This document shows, piece after piece, positions 7,601 to 29,916 of a DNA stretch of 64,000 bases. A program made the translations under genes and the position numbers. Under the pieces are notes generated by a model, which saw only the letters and a program-made list of their open reading frames with translations, had not been told where the DNA came from and ran no database searches. How positions within the stretch are numbered: the stretch's first letter is position 1; each line of letters begins with the position of its first letter. The stretch spans positions 64,001 to 128,000 of the IMG/VR virus record IMGVR_UViG_3300037067_013660; one strand, written 5' to 3'. Origin of the DNA: a virus. Its lineage: Duplodnaviria > Caudoviricetes.

Positions 7601-7881
7601 AACGAATGGAACGTCGAGAGCCAGACGTGGCGACCCGCACCCCCGACGAGACGCTGGACCCGCTCCTTCATTTCGCCCGCCGCCTTGTTCGTGAACGTCA
7701 CGCCCACGATGTTGGTAGGGCTGACGCCGTGCTTGATCAGGTAGGCGATGCGCTTCGTGATGGTCGAGGTTTTGCCCGAACCTGCGCAACTCATCACCAT
7801 GGCGGGGCCCGCGAGATGCAGGACCGCGACACGCTGCTCTGGCGTCAGCCCTTTTAGGATGTCTAGGCATTCCAGACTCAA
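4537..7881 (-). CDS. uvrD: UvrD/PcrA-family SF1 helicase containing an intein
   Basis: Motifs CAGSGKT, VTFTNKAA, VDEWQD, GDTDQ/SIYGWRGA, NFRS, TAHAAKGLEF and EERRIFFVAVTRA. Confidence 0.95.
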   Translation of the reverse strand: MSLECLDILKGLTPEQRVAVLHLAGPAMVMSCAGSGKTSTITKRIAYLIKHGVSPTNIVGVTFTNKAAGEMKERVQRLVGGAGRHVWLSTFHSFCATLLRANFKQYGVPRNFTIADEGDANELTKIAIATVARQMRRNPEENEENVRYVRSWISGHKDYVRTPDDLNESNTRFPEYIPYYREYQRRLVHDGMLDFDDLIMKTVLGLRRNESLQKFYNHNIHHMLVDEWQDTNFSQFELVRLLTQQRGNVFIVGDTDQCLPAGTPITTNNGTRPIETIRKKDWVLGGSGYGYTAYGKVAAVAKRKYVGDLIEIITESNRVVRGTPEHCIFGKLPTNADDKFYVYLMYKEDVGCRIGWCKSYRSQGNGKSAFGPIVRMRQEHADRTWILRVCNDKNEAAEWEATLATRYGIPLVCFYSSGRNINITQEGIDHLFANIDTKYRASKCLEQLGLSFEYPHYTASGGSTAHRTTAHFSMFAQGRKCKGEYGTVVHGHTLSLHSSSKNLWVSAGKRLGGHVTNRNPRFRWKIQKSLKDYDKLYEEVRHVAENVNANIMRTAKFTEDKTYDFMPIGNAFPGITVPVVQLDSKVRDEKIISVKRVHYDGYVYDLSIPELRNYCANNVLVHNSIYGWRGADILNTERFYKVFPETKTYTLQTNFRSVPGIAAVANALIAHNTNRPDKTIVTHKQKGETPKSYGLKTTEDETRFVINTIRDMVKLGKDDWRDFAIIYRIRSLSRAIEDEAVGRNIPYRVVGSLSFYNRAAIKDILAYARLLVNPQEDTSFTRIVNKPTRGIGAVSFAAFNRAAEVEDTRLFVALGKRLYDKCGMLASAADGFRRLRDVFAQWRRMDQRKAGPIIEAILKNSGYLGYAENIRDEKYRDRVIEDLYELVNAANQFDDTKDKKKRHKGLRGFLEHTQLMQQDEKDKDPNSVTLLTAHAAKGLEFKNVFVIGCVEGATPLYPRGEPGQTMTSDDIRQHYEEERRIFFVAVTRAQERLWLTWPRARRSRDGSLSMSSPSRFLEESLVHDIQVKKEKKQKRYDDENAIDAGDGIRIYGITRQPKTEVKRKDGGANAVIRNRTQNLSEGQSQEDLRAARREHLRRLATRGIATTRPTKSNH
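6013..7110 (-). mobile_element. Intein (366 aa) in UvrD with a GIY-YIG-like endonuclease region
   Basis: GDTDQ|CLPAGT...YVYDLSIPELRNYCANNVLVHN|SIYG, with block B TPEH and internal FYVYLMYKEDVGCRIGWC. Visibly AT-richer than the flanks. Confidence 0.9.
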
Positions 7882-13983: not shown

Positions 13984-14507
13984 CAGAGGTCGGGGCGTAG
14001 GTGAAGGCGTGTCGTGACGAAACCGAACGGGTCTTTCGTGCCCGCGACGACCAGTAACCTGGCACGAAACCGCTGGTGGTACAGGGTGTCGCGTACCGAC
14101 TGAAGCCGGGGTCCCGTCGCCTCGGCCATGAGGTTGTGGATCATGATGCAGCGCATTCGTTTGGCGTCTTCTTTATCCTGCTTGTCGATGCGCCACAATT
14201 GATCCGCAGTCGTCAAGCAAAATGGTAGTTTTGCTTTTTGCATTTCCGCCAGACAGAAACAAGCGATCCGCAACGCCGCTTCCTCGACCAACGAGGCCAG
14301 CACTACCAATTGACCGCCGGGATCAACGCACAATTGCTTCAGGCCGCTGCGCTGCTGCGCTGGCGTCACCTTGGTTTTACCGATGGCGATCTGACGGAAT
14401 TTCAGTTGCTTTAGATCCGTGTGCCAATAATCCGCCGGTACGCCCGCCCGCAAGAGGAAGCGTTCGTCTGGCGTGGTGGCGCGGACGTAATCAGGTATTT
14501 TTCGCAT
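13956..14507 (-). CDS. Possible degenerate DnaC/IstB-like helicase loader
   Basis: LLRAGVPADYWHTDLKQL resembles DnaC-like N-termini. No intact Walker A. Adjacent to dnaB. Confidence 0.4.
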   Translation of the reverse strand: MRKIPDYVRATTPDERFLLRAGVPADYWHTDLKQLKFRQIAIGKTKVTPAQQRSGLKQLCVDPGGQLVVLASLVEEAALRIACFCLAEMQKAKLPFCLTTADQLWRIDKQDKEDAKRMRCIMIHNLMAEATGPRLQSVRDTLYHQRFRARLLVVAGTKDPFGFVTTRLHLRPDLCCYVEDDFT

Positions 14508-15651
14508 GCTTTTTGCGTTTGTTTTTCTTGGTTTTAGAAAGATTCCATATGGACTTTTGTATTTTGTTGCTTTTGTGTAGGCAGTGCGGACTGAGCCATA
14601 GCCGCTCGCGCGCCTGCTGGTGGCCGTTCTTGCCAATGTTGGCCATCCCGCCGCGCAGGAAACCCGCCTGGAACCACTCTTGGGCCGTCCATCCTGCGTC
14701 AATGAATCTAGTGCCATGCTCCCCGTCGAAACCGGCGACGACGATCCGGTATTGCGGATCCTCGCCGTGCTCGATTGCCCATGCGGCCACGTCGTGTGCA
14801 ACTGATAGGTCCTCGCATGCGTAAAGATCATCCGAGCGCCCGGCCGAGGCAGCATAGGGCGGGTCGAGGAACACGCCACACGGTCCGTGTCCCTGACGCA
14901 CGGCGAGGATCTTGGACGCGCCTCCCGTTACGCATCGCTTCCAGTCCCCGTTGAGGATCCGGACGTGACGCAAGCGTGCCGAGAGGTAGGCGAACCAACG
15001 CCGGACCTCGGGCATGGTGACAGGGTGATAGCACTCCTCGGGCACGGAAGGATCCCAGAGCGACGATCCGGCCGACTCAACCCCGGGCTCCCTCGCCCCG
15101 GCGTGGTTCACGCCCAGGCCGTTGTTACCCAGGTGCGGGCGCTGGCGCGAGACGCCTGGCTCCCTCTTGTCGCTGCGCTTGGTCAGCCGGTCGCCGTCAC
15201 CGAGCACCCACGCATGATCACCTGAGCACCACCCACTCCCGATCCAGCATGAGCATCCCCAGATCCACCATCCGGCCATCACAGGATCGCACCACAGCGG
15301 ATCGCCCATGAGATGCTCCAGCTCGTGCTCGGCACGCCAGCGCACAAGGGCCAGATGGCGAGCGTGCAGGTCCGCCTCGGACACGGGGTTGCTCGCAGCC
15401 TCAGCCGTGGCGTCAGGCTGTAGCTGGATCCCCCGCCATGCGTTCACTAACAGGCCGTCCAGATCGTTGACGGTCTCGGAGAAGTAGGGCCGGTTGGCCA
15501 GGTGGGGCCGGTTGAGCAGGACTGCCAACGACCCGGCGAAAGGCTCGACATAGTGGAGAACGTCGCCGAGGGCTTCCCATACCACGGGCGCGGCCTGGCT
15601 CTTACCGCCGAACCAGGGCCAAGGGCACTTGTCCAAGTTCTTTAGCGTCAT
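14491..15651 (-). CDS. Dam/D12-class adenine DNA methyltransferase
   Basis: PWPWFGGKS, YVEPFAGS, VNDLD, FLDPPY. Confidence 0.9.
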   Translation of the reverse strand: MTLKNLDKCPWPWFGGKSQAAPVVWEALGDVLHYVEPFAGSLAVLLNRPHLANRPYFSETVNDLDGLLVNAWRGIQLQPDATAEAASNPVSEADLHARHLALVRWRAEHELEHLMGDPLWCDPVMAGWWIWGCSCWIGSGWCSGDHAWVLGDGDRLTKRSDKREPGVSRQRPHLGNNGLGVNHAGAREPGVESAGSSLWDPSVPEECYHPVTMPEVRRWFAYLSARLRHVRILNGDWKRCVTGGASKILAVRQGHGPCGVFLDPPYAASAGRSDDLYACEDLSVAHDVAAWAIEHGEDPQYRIVVAGFDGEHGTRFIDAGWTAQEWFQAGFLRGGMANIGKNGHQQARERLWLSPHCLHKSNKIQKSIWNLSKTKKNKRKKHAKNT

Positions 15652-16931
15652 GTTGTTTTTTCCCAGATTGACTCGTTAGCCTTGATGTCTTCCGCGATCC
15701 TACGTTTCGCCATCTTGACGTATTCAGGATTCAGTTCAATCGAGATACAACGCCGCCGTAAGCGCGCCGCCACCATCGCGGTGGTACCGGCCCCCCCAAA
15801 AGGATCCAACACGACGCAGGGTTTGGTTTTGTTAACATCGCAATCACAGGTGCGTTGCCAACCCACCGTACGGGTTATGTCGATGTGACCACCGCCAGGC
15901 GCCGATACTTTACCGTCTGTGCGGCCAGTCCTGGCCGCACAGGCTCGACGGTCTGCTTCGACGTCACGATTAGGGTTTTTGATTCGTTCTAACTGTCGTT
16001 CCATTGGAGCACCACACGCAGCACAACAACCCTTTTCCGACGTAGCCGACTTAATAATCGGTTCGACCAGTGTTTCGGGCCATACGGCAAAGTGGGCTTC
16101 TGCGAACGGGTGTGGGTTGATGGTCCAGACGGAACGCGGGTTACGAGTTTCTGTTATCTGCCTGATACCCACGACGTGGGTATCATATCCTTTGATCGGT
16201 TTGTTGTCTTTGCCTAAGAATTTACCTTGTGCCGTATGTGTCTCGTTCGCGTGACGACTTGGTTCTTTAATGGCGTCGATGTCGTAGAAGTACTTGGGTG
16301 ATTTAGCAAAGTGGAACAAGTATTCGTGTGCTTTGGTGCAGCGGTCTCGCGTAGACTCCGGCATGGTTTGTCCACAGTACACCGGATTGAAACTCACGGC
16401 TTTGGCCCAGATGATGTCTTGCCGCAAATACCAACCATCGGCTTGCAACGCAAATGCTACGCGCCAAGGAATACCTATCAGGTCTTTAGGCTTTAGATCT
16501 AGGTTGGCTCTGATGCGATCTTGTTGCCTGCTCTGGTATTGTTCTCCTCCGTGTTGTTCTTTCCACTCTTCGCCATTTATCTTATGGTTAGCATAACCAC
16601 CACCAAAATAACTATCACCTAGATTCAGATAGAATGTACCGTCGGGTCTAAGGATACGTTTGACCTCGCGAAAGATCTGAATCAAATGTCCAACATAGCT
16701 CCACAAATCTTTTTCGTTGCCTAGTGACGCTGTCTGTTGTTTGACCTTGATCTTGTCTAGCCCAGGCATCGGTCGAAACGCAACACGATCCCATTCGACT
16801 GGATCGATTCCATAATTCCTTAACCCAAAATAAGGAGGTGACGTCATGACGGCGTGGACAGACTCGTCGGGCAAATCTCTGAGTACGTCCAAAACGTGTC
16901 CTTGCAGGAACTTGACGTACTGGTTTGTCAT
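15648..16931 (-). CDS. N4-C/N6-A DNA methyltransferase (beta class)
   Basis: VMTSPPY, LRQDIIWAK, AHFAVWP, VLDPFGGAGTT. In-frame G7 tract at 15791-15797. Confidence 0.92.
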   Translation of the reverse strand: MTNQYVKFLQGHVLDVLRDLPDESVHAVMTSPPYFGLRNYGIDPVEWDRVAFRPMPGLDKIKVKQQTASLGNEKDLWSYVGHLIQIFREVKRILRPDGTFYLNLGDSYFGGGYANHKINGEEWKEQHGGEQYQSRQQDRIRANLDLKPKDLIGIPWRVAFALQADGWYLRQDIIWAKAVSFNPVYCGQTMPESTRDRCTKAHEYLFHFAKSPKYFYDIDAIKEPSRHANETHTAQGKFLGKDNKPIKGYDTHVVGIRQITETRNPRSVWTINPHPFAEAHFAVWPETLVEPIIKSATSEKGCCAACGAPMERQLERIKNPNRDVEADRRACAARTGRTDGKVSAPGGGHIDITRTVGWQRTCDCDVNKTKPCVVLDPFGGAGTTAMVAARLRRRCISIELNPEYVKMAKRRIAEDIKANESIWEKTT

Positions 16932-17107
16932 CAGTTCGTGACCTTCGCCAGCATGAGGGCGATCTTTTCTTCCAGGTCGTCCAGCCGTTTGTGCAGCTCG
17001 CGATCTAGGTCGTCGAGTCGCTGTATCACGCCGGTCTCGTGGATCGCGATGTAGACGACGCGCTTGATTTGCTCTTCGGTTGTGCTCCACGTTGGTTTGT
17101 CGCTCAT
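16931..17107 (-). CDS. Small coiled-coil protein
   Basis: MSDKPTWST...LAKVTN, with start and stop overlapping its neighbours. Confidence 0.5.
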   Translation of the reverse strand: MSDKPTWSTTEEQIKRVVYIAIHETGVIQRLDDLDRELHKRLDDLEEKIALMLAKVTN

Positions 17108-18627
17108 TTCTTTTTCCATTTCGTCATCGTGAGGTTCGCGAGGTTGCGGGACCGTTGGTGGATGGTCCAGCCTTCGGCCTGGCACACCTTCGTCACGTTG
17201 TTGAACGCACCAGACAGTTGACCACCGGTGTCCTTGTAGTAGTAGACCAACGGCATGGGCTTGTTTTTGTCGGGGCGTCGCGTACGGCCGAAAATCTGCA
17301 TGATGCGGTGGCGCGCGTTCACGGGTGTGACCAAATGCAAACAGTTCAACGGCTTGATCGACACCATCGCGTCCATGACCTTTAGGCCAGCACAGATACA
17401 TCGGTATTTACCAGCAGCTAACTCGTGGTACAGGGTTTCGCGTCGCTTGTTCGGCACGGCACCATCGACGTAGCAGACGTCGTAACCGTTTTGCTTCAGG
17501 CGACGGAAAATCTCTTTCGCCAGAATCAATCGCTCGGCCAGCACGGCGACGAGACGACCGTCGTCGATCGAATCCATGACGGTCCGGACGATTAAATCGA
17601 TGCGCGACTGATCCGTCGACATCATCTGGAGCAACCGACCCCATTTCCACTGGGCAGAAAATGGCTTGCGTCCCTCCATCCACGCCGGTACCGAGAAGTT
17701 GGTCTCGATGAAGTGGACCTCGGGCTTCATTTGGTCGGCCCCGAGGCGCGCGACAACCGGCCCGATGATCTTGTACGCCAGGAACTCGCGTTTATCCAGT
17801 CGTTCGATCGTGGCGGTCAGGCCCAACCAACTGAGCGGTGCCCACAGACTGAAGACCCGGACAAACTCGGGCGATACTAGCTCGTGGATCTCGTCCGCCA
17901 CGACCAAACCAAAACGGAACTGGTCATCAATCAGGCGACCATAACCTTTGGGGTGTAGAAATGTCTGGACCGTCGCGACGCTGATGGGGTAGGCACCTTT
18001 ATGCCGGTAGGGACCGACGAGTCGTCTGCCCATCTGTTTTTCTAGCCGTTCAACGTTGGTGTGTTCGCGGAACTCCGCTTCCCAGTGTTTCTCGCCGTCG
18101 CCTCGCTTCGACAGGATCAACGTCTGGAGGCCCAGACGTGCGACGCACCCCATCCCGATGATGGTTTTGCCCGCACCCGTTTGCCCCAGGATGATGCCGG
18201 TACCGGCGTCCAGCCACGCGTCCACACATTTGTTTTGATCGGGCCATCGGGCGTCATCCAAAACGTGATGACGGAGCCGTAGTCTAAAACCCAAGGGGTT
18301 GATGGTGCGGAGATCGAGGGCGCGACGTAGTAGGTGTTGGATACCGGCGTCGTCACCACGCGGCAACCCGATCCACGTTTGCTTTGCCGTCAGGAGTTCA
18401 CGGTACGCTTCAATCACGTGGACGATTTCGACGCGCTCGGTCTTTTGCTTGCCGTTCGACAGCATGACGACGCGGTCGTTTTCGTCCACGACCAAACGGT
18501 ACTGCTGTTCTATCCATCGCAAGCGGAACCGTTCCAACAGGTCGTCTGTGACCAACTGTTCCGGTACGTACAGACGGTTCGCCAGGATGGGACGCGGCGT
18601 ACCGTCGTTTTGTTTAGACCCAAGCAT
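17104..18627 (-). CDS. SF2 DExH helicase (UvsW/Rad25-like)
   Basis: GQTGAGKT, VADEIH, GLTAT, QIFGRTRR. Confidence 0.9.
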   Translation of the reverse strand: MLGSKQNDGTPRPILANRLYVPEQLVTDDLLERFRLRWIEQQYRLVVDENDRVVMLSNGKQKTERVEIVHVIEAYRELLTAKQTWIGLPRGDDAGIQHLLRRALDLRTINPLGFRLRLRHHVLDDARWPDQNKCVDAWLDAGTGIILGQTGAGKTIIGMGCVARLGLQTLILSKRGDGEKHWEAEFREHTNVERLEKQMGRRLVGPYRHKGAYPISVATVQTFLHPKGYGRLIDDQFRFGLVVADEIHELVSPEFVRVFSLWAPLSWLGLTATIERLDKREFLAYKIIGPVVARLGADQMKPEVHFIETNFSVPAWMEGRKPFSAQWKWGRLLQMMSTDQSRIDLIVRTVMDSIDDGRLVAVLAERLILAKEIFRRLKQNGYDVCYVDGAVPNKRRETLYHELAAGKYRCICAGLKVMDAMVSIKPLNCLHLVTPVNARHRIMQIFGRTRRPDKNKPMPLVYYYKDTGGQLSGAFNNVTKVCQAEGWTIHQRSRNLANLTMTKWKKK

Positions 18628-18629
18628 AA

Positions 18630-20698
18630 CTATTTGTCACGTATCCATTTGTGATCCAAATCCCATAATGACTTCTGCTTTATTTCGGCGGTTGTGCGGG
18701 CATGTCCTTTTGCTGGCAAGGAATCGCGGCCGTATGCTGCCGCTTGCTTGATCCGTTGGACTGCGTGTCGATACCAATGTTCATCCAGTTCAATGCCGAT
18801 GAATCGTCTACCCGTCAACACGGCCGCCACGCCAGTGGATCCAGATCCCATGAATGGATCCAACACGATGTCTCCTGGTTTCGTATGGAGCTGGATAAAA
18901 TGGGCGGCCAACCGCCACGATTTTTCTGTTGGATGTTGTGTAGCACTCGGGATAATCTTCTTGATGCCGTAGTCGCCAGGCCGAATGATGTTTTCAACGT
19001 CGTGTGCCTCGCTATGCCAACGGGCTTTACCTTTACGGTGTGCCACCAGTACGAATTCGTAACTACGGCGGTATCGCCAACCCATTCCTATTGAATTGTG
19101 TCCAAGTGCACCATTGCCGACATAGAACAGATGTTTTGGATGATCAACCGTGATGTCGTAAACTTTCCCCTTGTACTTTCTGTGCGAAATATCTACTACG
19201 TCAACCCATGCAATTGTTCCATCGTTTGTGGCAAAAACGTTATTGTAGTGTCCGAGAGGGCTGTACCTCAGCTTCCAGTGTTCCGCCAATTTACCATTCT
19301 TCTTGACGTAGGTAGAAACGTTATGGTGTACAGCGCACGGCTGACTGCGCATCTTCAGTAGCCAAGACATTTGTTCGATCAATTTGGAAGATGCCGATAC
19401 ACCCTCAAATTGGTTGCAGCTTTTTCGGAAGTGCCCGTCACCATCCATCCATCCGTCGAGTACACCGGCTAAGAATTCAGGACAACCCTGTAGTACTGTT
19501 TGTGATAGTTGTTTATTGACGGCTATTCCTGGAACTAATTTGTGAAAAATAGTTGCCAGCGTTTTTCCATTGATCCGGGTTCTCGCTTTTTCCCCAGATA
19601 CGGTTTCTGTCTTCACCTGTATGCCGTAATTACCACACCATGTATGGATTCTAGCCACGTATTCAGCTTCTTTTGCGTGGTGTGTTAATTGAATAGAGTT
19701 ATGGTGAACGTCGCCCTCTGCTGCATAAAAGCCGACCATCCACCCAAAATCGTAGTCCATTGGGATGCGTAATGGTAGCCAACTATGTGCAAAGTGTGCC
19801 CGTACCGCGATCAGACGATTTTCTGGGATCGGAAATTTCAAGGGAACTTGGTGTTTACTCAACCACCAATGCGCTTTGTTGTAGCGCAAACCCAAATGCT
19901 CTGCTAAGGTGCACGTGCTGACGTCTTTCCTACTCTTCAGCTTTCCTACTAGGTAGTCACGACCGAGCAAGTCAACTACCGACAAAAATGTTTTGCCTGT
20001 GTCCTTGCGTTTGGCCATCAGCGTTGGAACCTTATCACCCAGCTTAATTTCATCAGCACGCCTGCACCCGTCTACGCATTCTATTGGATGATTTGGCGTC
20101 ACTTTTAATTTTGTACCGTCTCGTAATTTAAGAATGACGAGATCACCACGAAAAGATCTGATGCTTGTATCGACAACGGCTGACCACTTTCCTTCAGCGT
20201 CAACTACTTCGACATACTTGTCTGATGATTGTTGTCGAACAACATCAGCTATGTTCGTGAATTCGACCATACCATCAATACGGCATGGAAGCCGCGTAGA
20301 AGGATGGTAGCAACCTTTGTCCCACACGACCGCCTGTTCCCAGACAAACGTTTGGTTAATGGCATCGGCCCATCGAACGAATTGTATGCCTTTGTGCCCG
20401 CCCCCCCTCCACAGCAACACGCTACGTAGCCGCCAGGCTTCAGGATGTTGCGCCATAACGGCAAAGACGAAAGAAACAAATCATTAGCTTGGTCAAAATC
20501 ATCATTTTGGATAGGACGTCCTTCGTCATGTCGGTCTCTGTTTTTGCACGCGTGTCCAACGCGTCTGATGAGGTCATCGTTGTTGTTGTTGTGCCCATAG
20601 GGCGGATCCGTAAAAATGAAGTGTACGGGCTTTAGCTTAGGCAAAATGTCCAAACTATTCCCTCGGTACAGTCGGGCCTTATCATCGATGCGGATCAT
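18630..20698 (-). pseudogene. N6-A/N4-C DNA methyltransferase with intein, frameshifted at a G7 tract (possible phase-OFF allele)
   Basis: The N-half (TDPPY, ORF 20249-20707) and C-half (HPTEK, LDPFMGSG, ORF 18630-20456) join at 20401-20407. G8 restores CCCGGGGGHKG, matching the paralog's CCCCAGGGGGPDP. Confidence 0.85.
19095..20312 (-). mobile_element. Intein (406 aa) with LAGLIDADG homing endonuclease
   Basis: VWDKG|CYHPST...VTPNHP...WMVGFYAAEG...FLAGVLDGWMDGDG...VYDITV...GALGHN|SIGMGW. Confidence 0.92.
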
Positions 20699-22728
20699 CG
20701 GTCCCATAGCGTTTTCTCCGGCTTCTTTGGTTCGTCGTGTTGTTTCGTTTGTTTGGTCTTGACGCGGAATGCCTTGGGGTGACGGCGGGCGAAACGAATA
20801 CGGTGGCGTGCGATCTCGGCGTATTCTTCCTCTCGCTCGACACCGAAGAAATCAAAGCCCTCCAACATGCACGCGATGCCGGTGGTACCGCTGCCCGTAA
20901 ACGGATCCAATACCATGCCGTTGGGTGGCGTGACGAGTCGTACTAGGTAGCGCATCAGGTCCACGGGCTTGACGGTTGTGTGGGTATTGTGCCGAACCGT
21001 ATCACCGCGCTGGTATGGGTTGTCGATGGAGGTGCCGCGTCCGTCGTTGACGTTTTTGCTAGGGAAATCGTGTAACCCGAGTTCGCGTTCTCGACGTGAC
21101 GCTTTAGCGCAATACTTAAATCTTGCCAAAGCCTGATCCCCATGTACCATATTCTGCGACGTGATTTTTAATGTGACAGGCACGGCAGAGCCATTTAATT
21201 TCAAATGGTTTATCATAATTTTCATGGTGCCTGTCTGCGCGCAAAGATCCACAAACTTCACAAGGCATTTGTTTTGGGAATGCTTTTCGCGCCCGCACTC
21301 TGGCCAGTACCCGTTTTCTAAACTCAGGATCGTCGCGATAGCGATTGCGGAGATTATTTTTAATTCTGGCTGAGTTACGTGAATAGAATGTTCCTTCAAA
21401 TCGCTTGATAGATTGACCCCTGGGACTACCGAGGTTACTACAGCGTTTAGAACAGAATCTACGTGTTTTTCGATTTGGTTTGAATACTTTGCCACAGTAC
21501 TCGCAATTTCTTGGTTCCATTTGTTTATTACCTCCATAGTAGTATGAAGAATTAAATCATCATTGTGTGTAAATTGTTCGAAAAACCGGCTGGCTGTCCC
21601 CGCGTCACCATGTTGAGGACCTGCTGGTTTGCCTGTTGACGGTGCCCATATTCCGCCGCTGCCGCTGCCGCTGTGAGAGTAGCCGCTTTGCTCGTCCAAC
21701 ATTTTGACTGGACACCCATCAACGCATTCCCATTGTTCTGTTGTTTCGGTACCGTCAGGATCAGCGTATCCTCTCCTTGTCTGGGCTGTCGGTCGGAATC
21801 TCCATTGAGTTTTGTCACCCCTACCTGCATCTCCCTCTGGCCTTGTATCAGTGCGTCCACCATCAATCTTCTTTGTCCCCGCGCAACGACACCCATCTGA
21901 ATGCTGGAGCACCACGTTTGACGGCCACCGACCAGTTGTTTGCCTGCCGGTGTAGGGATGACCCGCGCCACCCCCGAACGGCTTAGAGCCGTCATCCCAC
22001 GTATTAATCGTAACGGTGTCGGTACCGACGCGACACCCATCAATGTTTAGACCACCAGTTCCCCATTTGAGGACATTCTCCGCAACCGTGCCATCCAGGG
22101 GTTTGCGCGCAAGGATGATGGGTTCATGTGCAGGTTTAAGTGCTACGTTGAAGCCCTGCCAGTCAAAAGCCTTTTGACTGGCAGGTAGTGTTACGTCGAC
22201 AGGTGTATTGGGTTTCAATCCCCACTTACCACGATCATTAGGAATGTTGCCTTGTCCTCTACGCTGCCCTATGACTTTTCGTTTCTTTTTAAGTTTTCGA
22301 TCTATAGCTTTTGATATGTCGTGTCCCTTTGGAAATCCTGACCCAAAAAGGTAACTAATGGTATCGCGTAGCTCAAACCCCGCCAACCGGATCGCGATGG
22401 CCATCAGGTCCATGGTTCTGGTACCTGCAAACGCCAACACGTAGCCGCCGGGCTTCAGGACACGCCGACACGCCCGCCACGTTTCGGGACCGGGGACAAA
22501 CCCGTCCCACTCTTTTCCCATGAAACCCTTTTTCTTGGTCTTGTGTCGTTTCCTAGATAACCACGCCGTCAACGCCGCTTCGATGTCCTCGGTCGTGTGG
22601 GCTGCTAATCCATAGGGTGGGTCGCACACGATCGCGTCGATGCTGTTGGCCGGTAGGTCGCGCAGTACATCGCGGCAATCGCCCGTCACGACTCGGAACC
22701 TTAGCTTTTTCTTTTCGTTATTTCCCAA
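20695..22728 (-). CDS. N6-A DNA methyltransferase (beta class) with an in-frame insertion of about 150 aa
   Basis: VCDPPY, GSGFPK, LKPAHEPI, HTTVKP, LDPFTGSGTT. The insertion lies between SRFFEQF and RFKYCAKAS. Confidence 0.9.
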   Translation of the reverse strand: MGNNEKKKLRFRVVTGDCRDVLRDLPANSIDAIVCDPPYGLAAHTTEDIEAALTAWLSRKRHKTKKKGFMGKEWDGFVPGPETWRACRRVLKPGGYVLAFAGTRTMDLMAIAIRLAGFELRDTISYLFGSGFPKGHDISKAIDRKLKKKRKVIGQRRGQGNIPNDRGKWGLKPNTPVDVTLPASQKAFDWQGFNVALKPAHEPIILARKPLDGTVAENVLKWGTGGLNIDGCRVGTDTVTINTWDDGSKPFGGGAGHPYTGRQTTGRWPSNVVLQHSDGCRCAGTKKIDGGRTDTRPEGDAGRGDKTQWRFRPTAQTRRGYADPDGTETTEQWECVDGCPVKMLDEQSGYSHSGSGSGGIWAPSTGKPAGPQHGDAGTASRFFEQFTHNDDLILHTTMEVINKWNQEIASTVAKYSNQIEKHVDSVLNAVVTSVVPGVNLSSDLKEHSIHVTQPELKIISAIAIATILSLENGYWPECGREKHSQNKCLVKFVDLCAQTGTMKIMINHLKLNGSAVPVTLKITSQNMVHGDQALARFKYCAKASRRERELGLHDFPSKNVNDGRGTSIDNPYQRGDTVRHNTHTTVKPVDLMRYLVRLVTPPNGMVLDPFTGSGTTGIACMLEGFDFFGVEREEEYAEIARHRIRFARRHPKAFRVKTKQTKQHDEPKKPEKTLWDR
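21116..21520 (-). CDS. HNH endonuclease nested out of frame inside the methyltransferase gene
   Basis: CEYCGKVF...FCSKRC, CEVCG...RHHENYDKPFEIKWLCRACHIKNH. It has its own GGAGGT ribosome-binding site. Confidence 0.85.
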   Translation of the reverse strand: MEPRNCEYCGKVFKPNRKTRRFCSKRCSNLGSPRGQSIKRFEGTFYSRNSARIKNNLRNRYRDDPEFRKRVLARVRARKAFPKQMPCEVCGSLRADRHHENYDKPFEIKWLCRACHIKNHVAEYGTWGSGFGKI

Positions 22729-23241
22729 ATCGACACCGATGGTTTCGATGGTTCTGGCGTGTACTTAGGTCTATTGCGTTTTACCGTCAAATCAACTTCG
22801 CCCGCGACCCAACATTTCTTAGGACAGGTTGGTGCTTTGTCTTGTCGCGGACGAGCAGCGCAGTTCCAAGAACCGCCAGAAGTGGTGTGTGTGTGTCCAT
22901 CCAACAGCACGTAACGACGTACCTGATTCCTCGTCCAGCGTATAGGTGATGACGCGGTGGTACCCCATGGCTTTGGCGGTACGCCACGCTGCAGCATAAA
23001 GAAATGATGGCACGTTGGGAGTTCCGTCGCTACAAAGTCGGTTGACCTCTAACGTAAGATCGTCGTAACTTTTGGCGACGGGACGTCCGACGGTCACGAC
23101 ACCCACGAGTTTGTCGTCGACCCAGCAGGCAAGAGAAAATTTATGGCCAACGACTGGTTGGTGGTGTCGATGATGGCGTGCTATAAAAGCGTTGGCCTCG
23201 ACTAACGAAATGGGAAACAAACGTAGGTCAGCGTACCGCAT
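22701..23241 (-). pseudogene. XF1762-family/Mom-like GNAT DNA-modification protein, frameshifted at (AC)6
   Basis: EANAFIARHHRHH, GRPVA, LEVNRLC, ITYTLDEESGTSLRAVGW. The family C-terminus GGSW..RPR.DK.PT.PK..W is in another frame (ORF 22701-22997). (AC)7 at 22885-22896 would join them. Confidence 0.8.
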
Positions 23242-24770
23242 CCCACAAACCTTTGGGTTCAGATTTGTCTTGTGCGTGGGCAGATAAAATCACGTAGGCC
23301 AAGACAACGCATTGTGGTACTTGGCCGTTGCCAATAGCTTGTAGCCGTTGGACGCGATGCCGTTTTCTCGTAGTCGTACGTTTGAGTCCTTGTTCCCACG
23401 AAACGCCATCTTGCCAAAGCGCCATGGCGTTGCGTTGCCACGCTGCCCATTCGTTTTTATTGAATGGTCGTATTTTGGTCCATCCTCGGGGCCAGCCCAT
23501 CAGGGCCTCGACCCACGTGGGATTGAGGTAACGATTTACTGCGTTGTCGTGGCGCGGCGCCACGACAGTCTCCAAGTTCGGGAATCGATCTTCTTGTGCA
23601 GTATTGTCCGTAATCTTAGCCGTCATGCTGGTACAGTTGCGAGGTGTAGGCCAAACGTCAGGTCGTTTTACTACGTCGGCTAAACACAAACTATGGCTAC
23701 TTTGTCCGTCTTTAGACAAGCGTTGATTATGTTGGTTTAGTTCTGCGTCTGGATGTTCTACCTCCTGCGTCGTTGGCCTACGCCAACGACGCAGTTGTCG
23801 TTTGGACCAGTAACGAGATTTGTCTCGGTATTTTCCACGTACCTGGATGTCAAGTGTCGTTAGCCCTGGAGCATAGCTTTCGTCGCAACTGTAGGATCGT
23901 GGAGTTGGCCATAACGATACAGCCGTAGGTAGATCTAGAGAGTTGCGATCATGGCAAGCAGGACTTGCGTTGGATTTATGATCGTGGGCCGTTGGCGTAG
24001 GCCAACGGCCCACGTCTTCGTCTACGGCGACGACCTCTTCCAAGTTACTCCTGTGCCCTTTCGCTTCGTCCTGTCGAGACCTGTCAGGTCTCGACATTTG
24101 AGTTCTGGGAGTAGGCCACGGACGCATGCGACTAGGTGTAAGACTGCCTTGGATCATATCCTCGGCTTCTTCTCTCGACAACTTACCGGCGTCAACCATG
24201 GTACGCATTTGACCAATTATACCTTCAGATCTAGCTTGCGTTGCGGTAGGGGTAGGCCATTGATCTGGCATGCAAATGACACGCGCCAAACTTTTCTCTG
24301 CCGTACCTTCGCGTACCATTTGAAGCGTTTTATCGCTCGTCCCGTCTTGGCTGGCTTTTGGCCTACGCCAAAAGCCAGCCAGACTGTTATCGTTTGGTAC
24401 ACCAAACCCAGAGACGATTTCTTTTATGCAACGCTCCTGTATGGTACGCTCCCAGACAACCCCATTCCGCATCGTACCCCAACGAGGCCAAGTCAGCGAT
24501 GACGGTTCCGAAGTAGCCGTGCGACGGCGCAAGAAGTCCTGGTACGTTTTCCAAGAGTGCGTGGGGGGGGGCATACTTTGCGAAGAACGTCGGCCGTCGC
24601 GGGCCACATGTTACGTTCGTCGTCAGCGGCTCGCTGTCGTCCCGCGGCGCTAAAGGGCTGGCAGGGAAATCCAGCAGCAACGACCTCGACCATGCCTTTA
24701 TACGCTTTCGCGTACTTTTTGCAGAACTCGCGGACGTCACCAAATATCGGAGCTTCGGGGAGGATGCCAT
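23228..24770 (-). CDS. C5-cytosine methyltransferase second chain (WPTP repeats plus motifs IX and X), overlapping the first chain and frameshifted at C9
   Basis: SWKT...TWPRWGTMRNG, seven W(P/R)(T/R)P units, LNPTWVEALMGWPRGWT, RLQAIGNGQVP. Confidence 0.75.
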
Positions 24771-24915
24771 CTAGAATCCTTTGGTTCAGAATTTTTTGGC
24801 AATGTTCATTGTACTCAACATATCCGACGGGACGCCAGCCAAGCAAATGGGTACCGAGTAGACCACCACCTGCGCCCGTAAACAACGACAACTCTCTAAC
24901 GACTTGTTTCGTCAT
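24387..24915 (-). pseudogene. C5-cytosine methyltransferase catalytic chain (motifs I-VIII), frameshifted at C9
   Basis: LSLFTGAGG and GFPCQPFS lie in one frame; LLENVPGL and HKRNRLW lie in another. C8 at 24563-24571 restores the frame. Confidence 0.85.
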
Positions 24916-24917
24916 GA

Positions 24918-25349
24918 CTACTTTGGTGTTGCTTTTTCTGGCAGTTCGGTTGAGGCCGAAAGCACCTGCAGGATAGTTTCGATTTTGTCCGCGTTGTGTT
25001 CTACGTCGATCATCATGACGTGTACGTATCGGAGCGCTTGCATCAGTGCGTGCATTACGTGTTTGGGCGGTACGCCAAGCAACAGCCCGCAGTCAACCGC
25101 CGCCATGGTTTTCAGCAGCGCTACGCGGTACTGCAATAAATTGTCGTGTGTCCGGTAGCACCACGTCGGCACCGTCGCGTTGACTTGGTGTACGGTTTCA
25201 TGTGGGCACTGATGTGTTAGGTGGCCAGCGGTTTTGTCTACGTCGAGGCGATGGATCCGAACGTTAGGTCCGCACGCCCGTACGACCCGCTGGCCCAACG
25301 CCATCAACTCGGGCGTCGGTTCAGCGGTACAGAAAAGCGCGACGTTCAA
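24918..25349 (-). CDS. Hypothetical protein (start uncertain)
   Basis: Fills an operon gap; the TTG start overlaps the upstream stop. Confidence 0.45.
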   Translation of the reverse strand: MNVALFCTAEPTPELMALGQRVVRACGPNVRIHRLDVDKTAGHLTHQCPHETVHQVNATVPTWCYRTHDNLLQYRVALLKTMAAVDCGLLLGVPPKHVMHALMQALRYVHVMMIDVEHNADKIETILQVLSASTELPEKATPK

Positions 25350-25897
25350 ATCAGTCGCTCCATGCGTGCGTACCGACTCAGTACCTGCAGGATGACGGCG
25401 GGGTTTTCGATGTGACCCTTGCCGGAATCGCCGACCGGCACGTACTGTTGATCCAAGTTGTTCCACAGCAGCATCATGGGGATCAGGATTTTGTTGTTGG
25501 CGGGATCGATTCTGATCTGGATCCCCACGACGATGCTGTAGCGCGCCACCACGCAGATGGGCGTCCATTCAAACGTGCCGGGGATCGTCTGCAAGATGTC
25601 GGCGCGCGTCAACACGACCGACAGGTACGTAGCCTTGGCCTCCTCGGGCATCTCGGTATATTGGGCGTCGTCGATGAGCGGGACGCCGAATACCCGCGCC
25701 ACGTTATTGGCCAAGGGCCGCAGGTACCGGACTTCAAAACGCCCGACCCAGTCGTGTTGTTCTGGGTGTTCGCATGGGTAGAACTGCGTCAGTTCTTTGA
25801 ACGGTCGGATGATCTGGATGCCCTCGGGCGGTGCATAGTCGTCGGGCAAATTGGTTTCCTGCACGTAACGATTTGGGGGTTGTTCCGTCATCGCCAT
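25346..25897 (-). CDS. Hypothetical protein
   Basis: 183-aa ORF within the operon. Confidence 0.65.
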   Translation of the reverse strand: MAMTEQPPNRYVQETNLPDDYAPPEGIQIIRPFKELTQFYPCEHPEQHDWVGRFEVRYLRPLANNVARVFGVPLIDDAQYTEMPEEAKATYLSVVLTRADILQTIPGTFEWTPICVVARYSIVVGIQIRIDPANNKILIPMMLLWNNLDQQYVPVGDSGKGHIENPAVILQVLSRYARMERLI

Positions 25898-26724
25898 AAT
25901 GACTTCTGTGTCATCTCCTCGGTAGACCTAGCTCGTTGTTTTCGTCCGGGTTTCGGGTCGTGTCCCAACGCCACGGCTTTCCTGATGCGTTTTACCGCGT
26001 GTCGGTACCAGTGTTCGTCCAGCTCGATGCCTATGAATCTTCTACCCGTCAGCACGGCCGCCACGCCTGTAGATCCTGAACCCATGAATGGATCCAACAC
26101 GATGTCGCCTGGTTTCGTATGGAGCTGGATAAAGTGTGCTGCCAGTCGCCAGGGTTTCTCTGTTGGGTGTTGCGTGGCACTCGGGATAATCTTCTTGATG
26201 CCGTAGTCGCCGGGTCGGATGATGTTTTCGATCTTGTTGGTTTCGTCGTACCACTTGGCCTTGGCGCCTGGTTTTTGTCCTACCAATACGAACTCGTAGC
26301 TACGCCGGTAATGCCAACCCATACCCATGGAAGATTTATCCCACACGACCGCGTGTTTGAACCCGATGATTTTGTCCATCATGAGGCTCCAACGGGCGAA
26401 CTGTGGATCGGGTCCTCCTCCTCCTCCTGCGCAACAGCAACAGATTGCCCCCCCCTTCGGAAGAATCGGCGTGATGGCCTTGAGCATCTTTTTAGTTACG
26501 GCGTTGGCTTGGTCAAAATCATCATTTGCAATAGGCCGGGCTTCTTCGTTTTGACCCGTAGACCTCCCCAGGGCTTTCTCCCAGTTGGCGATTAGGTCAC
26601 CGTCGTTGTTGTTGTGTCCATAAGGCGGATCCGTAAAGACAAAATCGATACGTTTCAACGTCGGCATGACGTCAAGGCAGTCGGCAAGCCATAGTTTTGC
26701 TTTGTTGTCGATCTTCTCAAACAT
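25888..26724 (-). CDS. N6-A/N4-C DNA methyltransferase, intein-free paralog of 18630-20698
   Basis: TDPPY, HPTEK, LDPFMGSG. In-frame G8 tract at 26448-26455. Confidence 0.92.
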   Translation of the reverse strand: MFEKIDNKAKLWLADCLDVMPTLKRIDFVFTDPPYGHNNNDGDLIANWEKALGRSTGQNEEARPIANDDFDQANAVTKKMLKAITPILPKGGAICCCCAGGGGGPDPQFARWSLMMDKIIGFKHAVVWDKSSMGMGWHYRRSYEFVLVGQKPGAKAKWYDETNKIENIIRPGDYGIKKIIPSATQHPTEKPWRLAAHFIQLHTKPGDIVLDPFMGSGSTGVAAVLTGRRFIGIELDEHWYRHAVKRIRKAVALGHDPKPGRKQRARSTEEMTQKSLWR

Positions 26725-27190
26725 CTCGTCGTCTCGGGTAAATCTTGACTTCACGGGGTTTGTTCGTGACGTTGCCTTCGCTGTCTTGGATGTCTTGGTC
26801 CTCGAAACCAAACGACGCCCACACGTCATTCTGTCCAGGTCCTTTGACCACTACTTCGCCCGCGAACGCCGGAGCCGATTGTTTCGCCGTAAACTGCTTC
26901 GTTATGACGCCCTGGTCGTCCAGCGCCATCATGTAGGTTCTGAAGTGACCGTAGTCGTTGTGGTCCACTTGCCACGCCAACACCAGGACGTCTGTATCGC
27001 TGATCCAGAAACTCCACGCTTGGTTTTTCTTGGGGTCGAACTTTACCTCGCTGAGTTTCTTGCCGCTGAACTTCGGCTGAAACGGGCGACCGGCAGCAAA
27101 CTGATCACACGCCTTACGTTTCAGTCCCTTGGATTTTTCGCACTTCCCCTTAACCGTAAAGAACTTTCGACATTCACGACACAGCGGCAT
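26717..27190 (-). CDS. Hypothetical protein with N-terminal Cys cluster
   Basis: MPLCRECRKFF...C...C. Confidence 0.6.
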   Translation of the reverse strand: MPLCRECRKFFTVKGKCEKSKGLKRKACDQFAAGRPFQPKFSGKKLSEVKFDPKKNQAWSFWISDTDVLVLAWQVDHNDYGHFRTYMMALDDQGVITKQFTAKQSAPAFAGEVVVKGPGQNDVWASFGFEDQDIQDSEGNVTNKPREVKIYPRRRDV

Positions 27191-27195
27191 GGCGG

Positions 27196-27768
27196 TTAGC
27201 TCTTCTTCAGGATGGTTTCGATGATTTTCTGTTCGTGTGGCGAAAACTCTTGCTGGTGCGGTACCTCCACGACCTTTAGGTCGCGTTGGCTCGGTTCGTG
27301 TTTGGCGGCCGCCTGTTTGATGCGTTCGGTCTCGTCGATGATTTCCTGGTAGAAGTGGTCGCCCAGTAGTTTTTCGTAAGCGTCGACCTTGATCCACGCT
27401 TTGGTCTTGTCGCGGTTATAAAAACCCTCGGTTGACGTGAGTCCGTGGATCTGGTAGTTGCCTCGTTGGGTTTGGCGGATCGCCAGGATCGGTTTGATGG
27501 CGAGGCGCTCGGTCGCGGGCGTCACGGGGCCGGTGGGCGCGTCGGTGCCGCCGACCTCCGCGTAAAACCCACGACACAGTTTCGCGACGTCGAGGCCGAG
27601 TCGCTTACGGTATTCGTCGGCCCCGTAGGGTTTGGGTGTTTCGCCCGGTTTCTTTACCGGTACGTTGCCGAACAGCCGGGCCGCCGCGACGTCAAAGTCA
27701 CTCGGTTTCAGCAGCCGCCATAATTCGATCCAAGGTGGCCGGATCAACTCCATCAGTAGGTCGGTCAT
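27196..27768 (-). CDS. Hypothetical protein
   Basis: 190-aa ORF within the operon. Confidence 0.65.
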   Translation of the reverse strand: MTDLLMELIRPPWIELWRLLKPSDFDVAAARLFGNVPVKKPGETPKPYGADEYRKRLGLDVAKLCRGFYAEVGGTDAPTGPVTPATERLAIKPILAIRQTQRGNYQIHGLTSTEGFYNRDKTKAWIKVDAYEKLLGDHFYQEIIDETERIKQAAAKHEPSQRDLKVVEVPHQQEFSPHEQKIIETILKKS

Positions 27769-28423
27769 TCGTCAGGTCTCCAAATTCTGCTTCCACGACG
27801 TTGCCATAAAAATCCCGTAGTCGTCCGTCGATGAGGAAGCGGTGATCGACGCACACGATTTTCTCTACTTCATCAACACGGGTCCGCACCATGATGAGTT
27901 TTTCGATAATGTTGAGTTCCTGGGTACCGTCGGCCGCAACTTCACTGACGCGACACCGCAGCGTAATGCTGTACTGCCCGTCGGGCCACGACTCGGCCTT
28001 TAGGAAGTCGTTCAGTTGGTAGGGGTTGACGCCTTCGGTCGAGAGCAACGGCACGCACGCCGGGTCCTCCACGATTTTGATCTCGCTGCCAAACTTTTCA
28101 ACCGCGTACGCCACCACCACGATGCCGTCGGCCAGCAGTGCTTCCAGCGTCATGAAGTCGGTCGAGACGAACGACACGGCCGTGAGGTTGTGGGGATCGT
28201 CCTGTAGGTCTTTGGTTCTGACCACGTAGCTGACGAGCCGTTGGATCTGTCGGCCGTGTTGGCCATCGGGTAGGCGTTCGACGAACAGGTAGTAGTCGCC
28301 TACCTGAACGTCGTGGTCATCGACCCGCAGGTCAAACGAGCGTTCGCCTCGTGCGATCAAGTCAAACATTTCGGCGTCGCAATAACGACGTATGGTTTGG
28401 GGCATCAGCATTTTGGTCCCCAC
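27698..28423 (-). CDS. ASCH/DUF3850 (PUA-like) domain protein
   Basis: FDLIARGERSFDLRVDDHDVQVGDYYLFVE...GRQIQRLVSYV. Confidence 0.75.
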   Translation of the reverse strand: MGTKMLMPQTIRRYCDAEMFDLIARGERSFDLRVDDHDVQVGDYYLFVERLPDGQHGRQIQRLVSYVVRTKDLQDDPHNLTAVSFVSTDFMTLEALLADGIVVVAYAVEKFGSEIKIVEDPACVPLLSTEGVNPYQLNDFLKAESWPDGQYSITLRCRVSEVAADGTQELNIIEKLIMVRTRVDEVEKIVCVDHRFLIDGRLRDFYGNVVEAEFGDLTNDRPTDGVDPATLDRIMAAAETE

Positions 28424-29916
28424 AAAGATTTGGTTGGAGGTTTTGGTTCAGGTCGTTTTGTTTTATCTGGTCTGTTTTCTCTAGCGTACCGGATCCTAGC
28501 CTTCGCGATCTCGACGTACTCGGGTTCTTGTTCAATGCCGTAGAAATTACGTTTGAGCGTCACGGCTGCGACGCCTGTGGTACCGCTACCACAAAATGGG
28601 TCTAATACGAGGTCGTTGGGTCTGGAACCCAGCGTTACGAGGTAGTGCATGAGCTTGACGGACTTAACGGTCGGATGGGAATTGGCATGGAGGGGCCGCC
28701 CCTCCATGCCATCGACCGTGTGAAGTTTGGGATCTACTTTTGTTGCGGTATTGAAACCGTCGCCGTATACTTCGCGCTTGGCTCGTTTTTGTAAGTCGTC
28801 TAGTCCAGCGTTCTTTTCTCGTCGCGATGGCTTCGCTACATACAGAAATGGGAATGTTGCTTGTGCGGATTCGGGCAAGTCACCGATGCGTTCAGCGAAC
28901 CAAGCGTCTAGGTCGAAGTACCGCGAGACAGAACCATTGTTATTTGCAAACCTTTGCATCGCGGTTTTGTCTGTAACGTCTTTGCCGTTTCCGAAACATC
29001 CACCGAACGACGCCTTACCCCCACCATGAGACTTAGTTGGACCTGCTCCGCGCAAAGCGTCGTCCTGTACCAGTACGTTGGCGTGAACACGACCAGACGG
29101 TTGTACTACCGTGGGTCTATCGGATCCTGCTTTATTCATTCCCCAAACTTGACCAGAAACGTCTGTTTCGCGTTTATTACGATTCATTACACGACCGACT
29201 TGTGTTGCGTCGGCCGATGGGTTTACGGGTATTCTACAATCGTCCAGCCAGGTGCAACCTTTTCTGTTGACCAGCGTCTGATCAATGTAGGTTGTTTCGG
29301 TAATGGGTTTCATCACCACCACAATATTTTCTAGGTTCGGCCGTGGCTGGTAGCCAGCGTAACTACCGTTAAGGCGTTTGGCTTCTTCGGTAGCAGGGGC
29401 AGTAACAAGTCTAGTACCTCTTTTATGTCTAGCACTACGATCTGTTCTTCCTTCACCTGATCGCCACGCATCATAGTTATCGCCGCCGCCAGACGGTACT
29501 TCTGCAACCACCTCTCGTTCCACTCCCGCTCGTTTGTCTAGGTGCTTGCTAATGTTTTTAGCTTTGCCGAATCCTTGAGAATGAATCCAGTAAATAGATG
29601 TATAGCCAATGACAAAACCGGCTTTTTGCAACCGTAGGATCAGCTTCGCCAGACAGTCTTGTCTAGGGGAACACATGATGAACGCGAAGGCGCCGGGCTT
29701 CAGGACGCGCAAACACTCCCGCCAGATCTTTGTGCTGGGAACGTCCACGTCCCACTTGGCCGCCATGAAGCCACCGCTGGCTTTGGTTCTCTTACCCCGT
29801 GGGCTCACGGGTGTCAGGCCGTAGGGCGGATCCGTCACGATGCAGTCAACGGTTTCGTCGGGAAACCGTTTCAGCACGTCCAGGCAGTTGCCTAGTTTGA
29901 CCCGAGCCTTCAGCAT
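28405..29916 (-). CDS. N6-A DNA methyltransferase (beta class)
   Basis: IVTDPPY, HPTVKS, VLDPFCGSGTT. Confidence 0.92.
   Translation of the reverse strand: MLKARVKLGNCLDVLKRFPDETVDCIVTDPPYGLTPVSPRGKRTKASGGFMAAKWDVDVPSTKIWRECLRVLKPGAFAFIMCSPRQDCLAKLILRLQKAGFVIGYTSIYWIHSQGFGKAKNISKHLDKRAGVEREVVAEVPSGGGDNYDAWRSGEGRTDRSARHKRGTRLVTAPATEEAKRLNGSYAGYQPRPNLENIVVVMKPITETTYIDQTLVNRKGCTWLDDCRIPVNPSADATQVGRVMNRNKRETDVSGQVWGMNKAGSDRPTVVQPSGRVHANVLVQDDALRGAGPTKSHGGGKASFGGCFGNGKDVTDKTAMQRFANNNGSVSRYFDLDAWFAERIGDLPESAQATFPFLYVAKPSRREKNAGLDDLQKRAKREVYGDGFNTATKVDPKLHTVDGMEGRPLHANSHPTVKSVKLMHYLVTLGSRPNDLVLDPFCGSGTTGVAAVTLKRNFYGIEQEPEYVEIAKARIRYARENRPDKTKRPEPKPPTKSLWGPKC

Follow-up and report, generated by a model that had tools for sequence, protein, structure and literature searches.

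Simple-sequence repeats as probable frame toggles in the DNA-modification genes of a large uncultivated phage

The window analysed here is the 64,000-nucleotide stretch at bases 64001-128000 of IMG/VR virus record IMGVR_UViG_3300037067_013660, a linear contig of 196,895 bases with a guanine-plus-cytosine content of 55% and a CheckV completeness of 56%. The DNA belongs to a large uncultivated phage. Eight DNA-modification genes form an island on the minus strand of the window, from 14.5 to 30 kb: five methylases of the N6/N4 class, one of the D12 class, a two-part C5 methylase and a Mom-like enzyme. Around the island lie replication genes, encoding a DnaB-like helicase, a superfamily 2 (SF2) helicase and a ribonucleotide reductase. 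Three of the modification genes are broken at a simple-sequence repeat and two others carry such a repeat in frame. Comparison with related contigs suggests that the repeats are probably hypermutable frame toggles of individual modification enzymes in natural populations.

Repeat tracts and reading frames in the island

The plus strand of the window reads C7, C7, C8, G9 and (GT)6. The genes are on the minus strand, hence the tracts are given as G7, G7, G8, C9 and (AC)6. The tracts, followed by the genes that contain them, are listed below; a gene is referred to as on when its tract leaves it in frame and as off when it does not.

15791 to 15797, minus strand: G7, in frame (on), at codon 379 of 427 of an N6/N4 methylase; encodes the Gly-Gly of the S-adenosylmethionine-binding motif I
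20401 to 20407, minus strand: G7, out of frame, in the intein-bearing N6/N4 methylase; one more base (G8) is in frame
22885 to 22896, minus strand: (AC)6, out of frame, in the Mom-like gene; (AC)7 (two more bases) or (AC)4 is in frame
24563 to 24571, minus strand: C9, out of frame, in the C5 catalytic half, where it encodes Pro-Pro just before the ENV motif; one base fewer (C8) is in frame
26448 to 26455, minus strand: G8, in frame (on), in the 278-amino-acid N6/N4 methylase; encodes Lys-Gly-Gly-Ala
26413 to 26427, minus strand: (GGA)5, an in-frame trinucleotide repeat (Gly run) near the G8 tract of the same methylase
15648 to 16931, minus strand: N6/N4 methylase of 427 amino acids from the ATG at 16931, intact; PF01555, E = 2e-37; the exact protein is on record
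18630 to 20707, minus strand: N6/N4 methylase with an intein, off, present as open reading frames (ORFs) of 152 and 608 amino acids split at G7; PF01555
22701 to 23241, minus strand: Mom-like DNA-modification gene, broken at (AC)6, with a 140-amino-acid ORF and a downstream frame; PHROG 1384, E = 4e-37
23228 to 24915, minus strand: C5 methylase, both halves; PF00145 and PHROG 1008
25888 to 26724, minus strand: N6/N4 methylase of 278 amino acids from the ATG at 26724, intact; PF01555, E = 5e-32

A first-pass annotation made from the letters of the window had placed five tracts at these positions and had called them the only runs of at least seven G or C. A regular-expression scan bears this out: the five are the sole G/C runs of at least 7 bases and the sole dinucleotide repeat of at least 6 units in the window. 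Tandem Repeats Finder reported no repeats between 14 and 30 kb. The frame logic was checked by three-frame translation and homologue alignment, and these agree with the earlier proposals that three modification genes are broken exactly at their repeats and that one repeat unit repairs each of them (G8, (AC)7 and C8). The reading frames of the two methylases described as intact, with in-frame G7 at 15791 and G8 at 26448, are likewise as proposed. Three genes are therefore off in this genome (the intein-bearing N6/N4 methylase, the Mom-like gene and the C5 catalytic half), and the two other N6/N4 methylases with a tract are on.

Errors are notoriously common at homopolymers, and the breaks could be read as artefacts of sequencing or assembly. 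The off states recur, however, in other assemblies. The G7 at 20401 was found at 100% identity over 1.3-2.1 kb in three ENA assemblies made with MEGAHIT (L021-L023), and another JGI contig encodes a variant of the protein that differs at one residue and starts off frame in the same way. The (AC)6 tract is present at 100% identity in one ENA contig and one JGI contig, and its state is equal in three other assemblies, either verified in the DNA or deduced from the ORFs. Both tracts are thus reproduced base for base in independent short-read assemblies, and assembly error is excluded for them; a dinucleotide repeat is in any case no typical error site. The ORF layout of a 7.3 kb Logan contig is equal to that of the window for all three breaks. 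The exact 140-amino-acid product of the C9 locus is also on this Logan contig, which is possibly derived from the same reads as the window, so that C9 has one confirmation that may not be independent and assembly error is unlikely there. Over about 21 kb, the contigs of relatives have no stray homopolymer indels in coding sequence. As a general account of the breaks an artefact has next to no probability.

Repeats across relatives and across the genome

The relatives used for comparison are two NCBI metagenome contigs and two Logan contigs of 89-98% identity (L015, L024, L025 and L026), of which L015 is 95% identical; the SF2 helicase gene at 17104-18627 served as the anchor for finding them. 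Samples containing this phage or its relatives are Logan run SRR18595300, the runs behind ERZ27247361, ERZ27250894 and ERZ27247346, JGI 3300028603, SRR29093060/61 and SRR22315505/07/09. The first-pass annotation had proposed a comparison of tract lengths with related genomes, and the lengths differ at 15791 and at 26448. The tract at 15791 is G7 (on) in the window and G8 (off) in L015, where the protein is truncated just past motif I and is called at 394 amino acids. The tract at 26448 is G8 in the window and in L024 but G6 in L025 and G9 in L026, and these last two lengths are off, with the gene split into an ORF of 114 or 115 amino acids and one of 163. The neighbouring (GGA) repeat has 5 units in the window, 4 in L024 and 3 in both L025 and L026. 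The tract at 20401, which is G7 (off) in the window, differs in L015 by an interruption, G5-A-G2, that is in frame.

L025 and L026 derive from neighbouring sequencing runs. Apart from G6 versus G9, they have 0 mismatches in 886 aligned bases. A difference of this kind in otherwise identical DNA indicates that the length changed repeatedly on a very short time scale, and back-and-forth movement is mechanically implied. Tract length changes far faster than point substitutions accumulate among these relatives. Alignment to L015 and L024 covered about 21 kb, and within coding sequence it shows frameshifting indels at G tracts and nowhere else; the remaining indels are in-frame repeat units, one divergent block that is in frame on balance, or intergenic. 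Runs of 6 or fewer, such as a G6 in the DnaB-like gene, are invariant among the aligned relatives. The contigs of both relatives end inside the methylase island, which is more diverged than the flanking core genes (synonymous divergence, dS, of 0.12-0.47 versus 0.01-0.04).

The reading frames downstream of the tracts were compared with those of relatives by the ratio of nonsynonymous to synonymous divergence (dN/dS), which ranges from 0.04 to 0.19. It is 0.126 over the 588 codons downstream of the G7 break in the intein-bearing methylase, 0.14 downstream of the G8 break in the 427-amino-acid gene of L015, and 0.038 (with a dS of 0.64) downstream of the G6 break when L025 is compared with the window. 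The adjacent helicase, taken as a control, has a value of 0.065. These downstream frames are under purifying selection, as judged from the substitution pattern, and the genes are not decaying. The broken genes had been described as otherwise undegraded, and with these ratios, canonical intein junctions and C-terminal tails kept in the shifted frames that description holds. The tails are short, Lys-Ser/Thr-Leu/Ile-Trp-like sequences found at the C-terminus of all the modification enzymes of the island (14491-29949), and also at the end of the shifted frames downstream of the three breaks.

Seven G/C runs of at least 7 bases are present on the whole contig. Five are in five different methylase genes and two in one 690-amino-acid gene. 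Three of the seven are outside the window, one in a second D12 methylase and two in the 690-amino-acid, lectin-like gene, and all three are in frame. By length, the location of five of seven runs within 6% of the genome has a binomial P of about 2e-5. Codon resampling, in which synonymous codons were redrawn with each protein and the codon usage of the genome kept, gave 1.13 expected runs of at least 7 in the modification genes against 4 observed (P = 0.024). In all other genes 3 such runs were observed against 15.05 expected, an approximately five-fold depletion, and for runs of at least 6 the figures are 14 observed and 57.2 expected. It follows that ordinary genes strongly avoid G/C runs and that modification genes do not, where runs of at least 6 are at the neutral level (4 versus 4.1 expected). 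A count of repeats inside and outside modification genes had been suggested as a check, and it shows an uneven spread. The further claim that such repeats are confined to modification genes is right for the window. On the whole contig the repeats are concentrated in these genes above chance, but the claim of confinement fails, as the lectin-like gene and three small genes carry repeats too. The same division applies to the first-pass reading of a phase-variable phage epigenome: the lengths in relatives support hypermutable, frame-toggling tracts, and confinement to modification genes does not stand.

The product of the lectin-like gene (contig 165407-167479; L003:908-2980) is hydrophobic over an N-terminal segment, and the gene holds G8, G7 and G6 runs, all in frame. 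Neither Pfam nor PHROG gave a match for it and no tract variants were found; its nearest ESM Atlas clusters are viral concanavalin/LamG lectin-like proteins. It is possible, judging from these clusters, that the product binds carbohydrate and that this is a host-binding contingency gene. Near the end of the contig (191.8-193.8 kb; L004:2783-4841) there are two small genes of unknown function in which the ATG runs straight into (AG)8 or (GA)9, and a third in which (AG)11 stands seven bases upstream of the ATG. In one Logan assembly the (AG)8 gene is called from a start past the repeat, a hint that the repeat number may differ there. Copies of a short inverted-repeat motif lie between the genes of this region. 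The second D12 methylase lies outside the island, at about 11.85-13.86 kb of the contig (11850-13860; L002:350-2360). An IS605-type TnpB gene, which lies on the opposite strand, splits it about 40 bases past its in-frame G7, and the end of the element is marked by a short GC hairpin.

Contingency loci are recognised by several properties. The five tracts of the window lie inside coding regions, and gain or loss of a unit toggles between a full-length and a truncated product. Length polymorphism in near-identical genomes is seen at 15791 and 26448, and 20401 differs by an interruption. Over-representation of repeats is found with both the codon-resampling and the binomial tests.

The main rival to switching is recurrent neutral loss. 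Accessory methylases that are redundant and under weak selection would tolerate homopolymers and break at them often and in one direction, and the off alleles would be young pseudogenes with no selected, reversible switch. Several observations favour this account and weigh against frame toggling. All assemblies of this exact strain share the three off states, which also fits fixed inactivation, and a search of protein collections holding about 15 billion proteins gave neither an on variant nor a different length of (AC)6 or C9. Pattern scans across each tract with variable gaps likewise gave no match in collections of viral and metagenome contigs, which seem to lack near-identical records. The difference at 20401 can be read as plain loss of the interrupting A, in which case the break would have produced the G7 and not the reverse. 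L025 and L026 are both off, and no reversal from off to on has been seen directly between them. The near-identical intact paralogue of the intein-bearing methylase may make loss of the latter neutral, and the TnpB element inside the second D12 methylase points to erosion of this gene class in general. The conserved Gly-Gly motifs of methylases explain part of the enrichment, the resampling P is just 0.024, and runs of at least 6 do not exceed neutral expectation. One-way loss does not readily account for the strong conservation of the downstream frames, for runs of at least 7 above neutral expectation, for G6 and G9 in otherwise identical DNA, or for four lineages each with its own on/off combination. 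Although it is the strongest competitor, we consider it unlikely, and frame toggling by the repeats is preferred.

The broken genes and their neighbours

The intein of the N6/N4 methylase at 18630-20707 begins with Cys1, ends with His-Asn followed by Ser, contains a LAGLIDADG domain and is inserted exactly where the paralogue is continuous, as expected of an intein. The paralogue is the 278-amino-acid methylase at 25888-26724. PF01555 scores above its curated cut-off in five genes of the island; the N-terminal fragment of the broken gene alone reaches 20 bits, which is below the cut-off, and its C-terminal part 74.9 bits.

The Mom-like gene scores 24.6 bits against PF25680, under the cut-off of 27.1, because it is split at (AC)6; homologues of 70% identity carry PF25680. 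Its downstream frame still aligns with homologues and keeps the conserved C-terminal residues of the family. The collection of genome contigs contains Mom relatives at 50-58% identity only. Two Mom-like homologues of other phages (P0008 and P0084) have divergent C-termini that resemble a frameshifted family tail and begin at about the same place as the break.

The C5 methylase is arranged differently, as two parts in two frames:

24387 to 24915, minus strand: catalytic half, with motifs I-IV upstream of the tract and motifs VI-VIII in the next frame downstream, stop at 24389-24387; PF00145 on both pieces
23228 to 24472, minus strand: second half, a repeat-rich recognition region with motifs IX and X; PHROG 1008; one frame off the catalytic half

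PF00145 scores 60.9 bits upstream of C9 and 31.3 bits in the next frame downstream. A C8 tract would restore a catalytic half of about 176 amino acids (motifs I-VIII) and not one long protein; upstream, it would also restore the long +1 ORF that relatives have. The same layout, with the catalytic half in one frame and the remainder in the +1 frame, is found in L009 (6200-7300), L016 (4001-5368) and L017 (4001-5737), and as it is common to relatives it is a trait of the family and not decay. An in-frame C5 domain is lacking in 28 of 29 homologues of the second half, whose frame carries motif IX and, in most relatives, also motif X. No stop interrupts the +1 frame over the entire catalytic half in five of six relatives, so that the long proteins predicted there by gene callers begin with C5 motifs read out of frame. 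A 459-amino-acid ORF over C9 was considered as a conserved tract-spanning protein and was rejected, as its N-terminal 'homology' is the +1 reading of C5 motifs in L009, L016 and L017. A +1-frame ATG is conserved inside the motif VII-VIII region. G/C runs are also present in the C5 genes of unrelated phage contigs, a G9 in L009 and a G7 in L017. Two-subunit C5 methylases such as M.AquI have motifs I-VIII and motifs IX-X on separate, overlapping reading frames. The phage genes resemble M.AquI in having two C5 parts in different frames and differ from it in that the second frame has no stop over the length of the first half in those five of six relatives. The layout would be compatible with a split enzyme, with a programmed shift or with overprinting of a gene.

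The use of two frames as a rule in the C5 family is one reason to consider programmed recoding, in which off alleles would be expressed through ribosomal frameshifting or RNA-polymerase slippage and the tract would set the dose of the enzyme and not an on or off state. Runs of 7-9 identical bases permit transcriptional slippage, so the off alleles are probably leaky. The shift needed nonetheless differs by locus (-1, +1 and +2), tract length is not conserved, and relatives have plain in-frame versions (G5-A-G2, G7 and G8) with no recoding signal. Programmed recoding is accordingly highly improbable as the function of the tracts.

The remaining features of the island and its surroundings are as follows:

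14491 to 15651, minus strand: D12-class adenine methylase of 386 amino acids; PF02086; without a homopolymer tract
17104 to 18627, minus strand: SF2 helicase of 507 amino acids, ResIII and Helicase_C domains, between two methylases; without a repeat tract
19095 to 20312, minus strand: LAGLIDADG intein of about 406 amino acids; PF14890 and PF14528
20695 to 22689, minus strand: N6/N4 methylase of 664 amino acids, intact, no long repeat; AT-rich insert with a nested 134-amino-acid ORF
28405 to 29949, minus strand: fifth N6/N4 methylase, 514 amino acids, intact, no long repeat

The methylase genes of the island (N6/N4, D12, C5 and Mom-like) stand alone, with no mod/res or hsd architecture of Type I or Type III restriction-modification, and no nuclease domain was detected in the neighbour with the ResIII domain. 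The nested ORF of the 664-amino-acid methylase has no Pfam match at E <= 0.01. By pairwise alignment, the D12 methylase has an in-frame repeat of 24 amino acids (72 bases) in one copy in the window (14950-15170) and in three copies in L015 (5450-5700). In the 427-amino-acid methylase about 45-50 amino acids between Cys-rich motifs are fully replaced in L015, in the manner of a swapped cassette (window 15861-15986 versus L015:4651-4764). A protein search with this methylase found no relative closer than L015, and a phage collection gave no near match, its methylase matches being short and distant only. According to the annotation of the relative L015, the UvrD-like helicase at 4537-7881 also bears an intein.

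Slipped-strand switching of phage DNA modification

In the mechanism that we propose, the repeats would act as hot spots of slipped-strand mispairing during replication of the phage DNA, the gain or loss of a repeat unit would move a gene in or out of frame; close relatives do carry other on/off combinations. Switching may be reversible at a useful frequency within a population. It may also be selected, as each mark would shield the DNA from some host nucleases and expose it to modification-dependent ones.

Repeat-switched methylases are well known in bacteria. The phasevarions of Haemophilus, Neisseria and Helicobacter involve Type III mod and Type I hsd methylases that are switched by repeats, and independent switches give combinatorial methylomes. 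The phage genes share with them slipped-strand repeats inside methylase genes and on/off expression. The bacterial genes, in contrast, belong to restriction-modification systems and regulate genes of the cell, whereas those of the island are orphan phage enzymes that likely serve the self-protection of phage DNA, and no regulon is implied.

A recent study by Gomez, Barrick and Waters determined that an A-run in the glucosyltransferase gene agt of phage T2 is a contingency locus (2025, bioRxiv 10.1101/2025.10.21.683753). Rates of frameshift and reversion at the run exceed those of a point mutant about 1000-fold, and loss of the mark trades escape from TgvAB, a modification-dependent defence, against restriction by McrA/BC. 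Like agt, the genes described here have a simple repeat within a phage DNA-modification gene and frequent frameshifts. T2 differs in having one glucosyltransferase with A-runs, for which rates and reversion were measured; in the uncultivated phage six genes for methylases or a Mom-like enzyme bear repeats, of G/C or of (AC), and the evidence for them is comparative only. By analogy with agt, reversible, adaptive bet-hedging is plausible. The preprint also relates two further cases. In its account of Sorensen et al. (2021), poly-G tracts of 7-11 bases in receptor-binding genes create subpopulations of Campylobacter Fletchervirus phages. The lectin-like gene with its G8 and G7 may be the same kind of locus, although the Fletchervirus tracts concern host recognition and those of the island DNA modification, and the lectin-like tracts are in frame with no variants found. 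In its account of Liu et al. (2004), Bordetella phage BPP-1 has a poly-G tract in a methylase gene that was noted and not studied; the likeness is the tract inside a phage methylase gene and the difference is that BPP-1 has one locus. In the literature we found no paper on several repeat-bearing methylases in one phage. The mechanism is known from bacterial contingency loci, with the single-gene phage form shown experimentally for T2 agt.

The fullest adaptive interpretation goes further than frame toggling and is tentative, being somewhat more doubtful than probable. Under it, six independently slipping repeats in ten DNA-modification genes would give a combinatorial, heritable and reversible methylome with dozens of possible epigenotypes in a single burst population, extra repeats would act in the lectin-like and small genes, and the phage would be pre-adapted to hosts with differing restriction and modification-dependent defences. 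Phage methylases are usually regarded as a fixed part of the anti-restriction equipment. Independent switching of several of them would put many epigenotypes into one phage stock, and models of host range, of escape from restriction and of how sensitive a phage is to modification-dependent (type IV-like) defences would change, as would the reading of phage methylomes from metagenomes. For annotation, 'broken' phage methylase genes should not be dismissed as errors or pseudogenes. A natural multi-locus case also offers an opening to test combinatorial bet-hedging by single-molecule sequencing.

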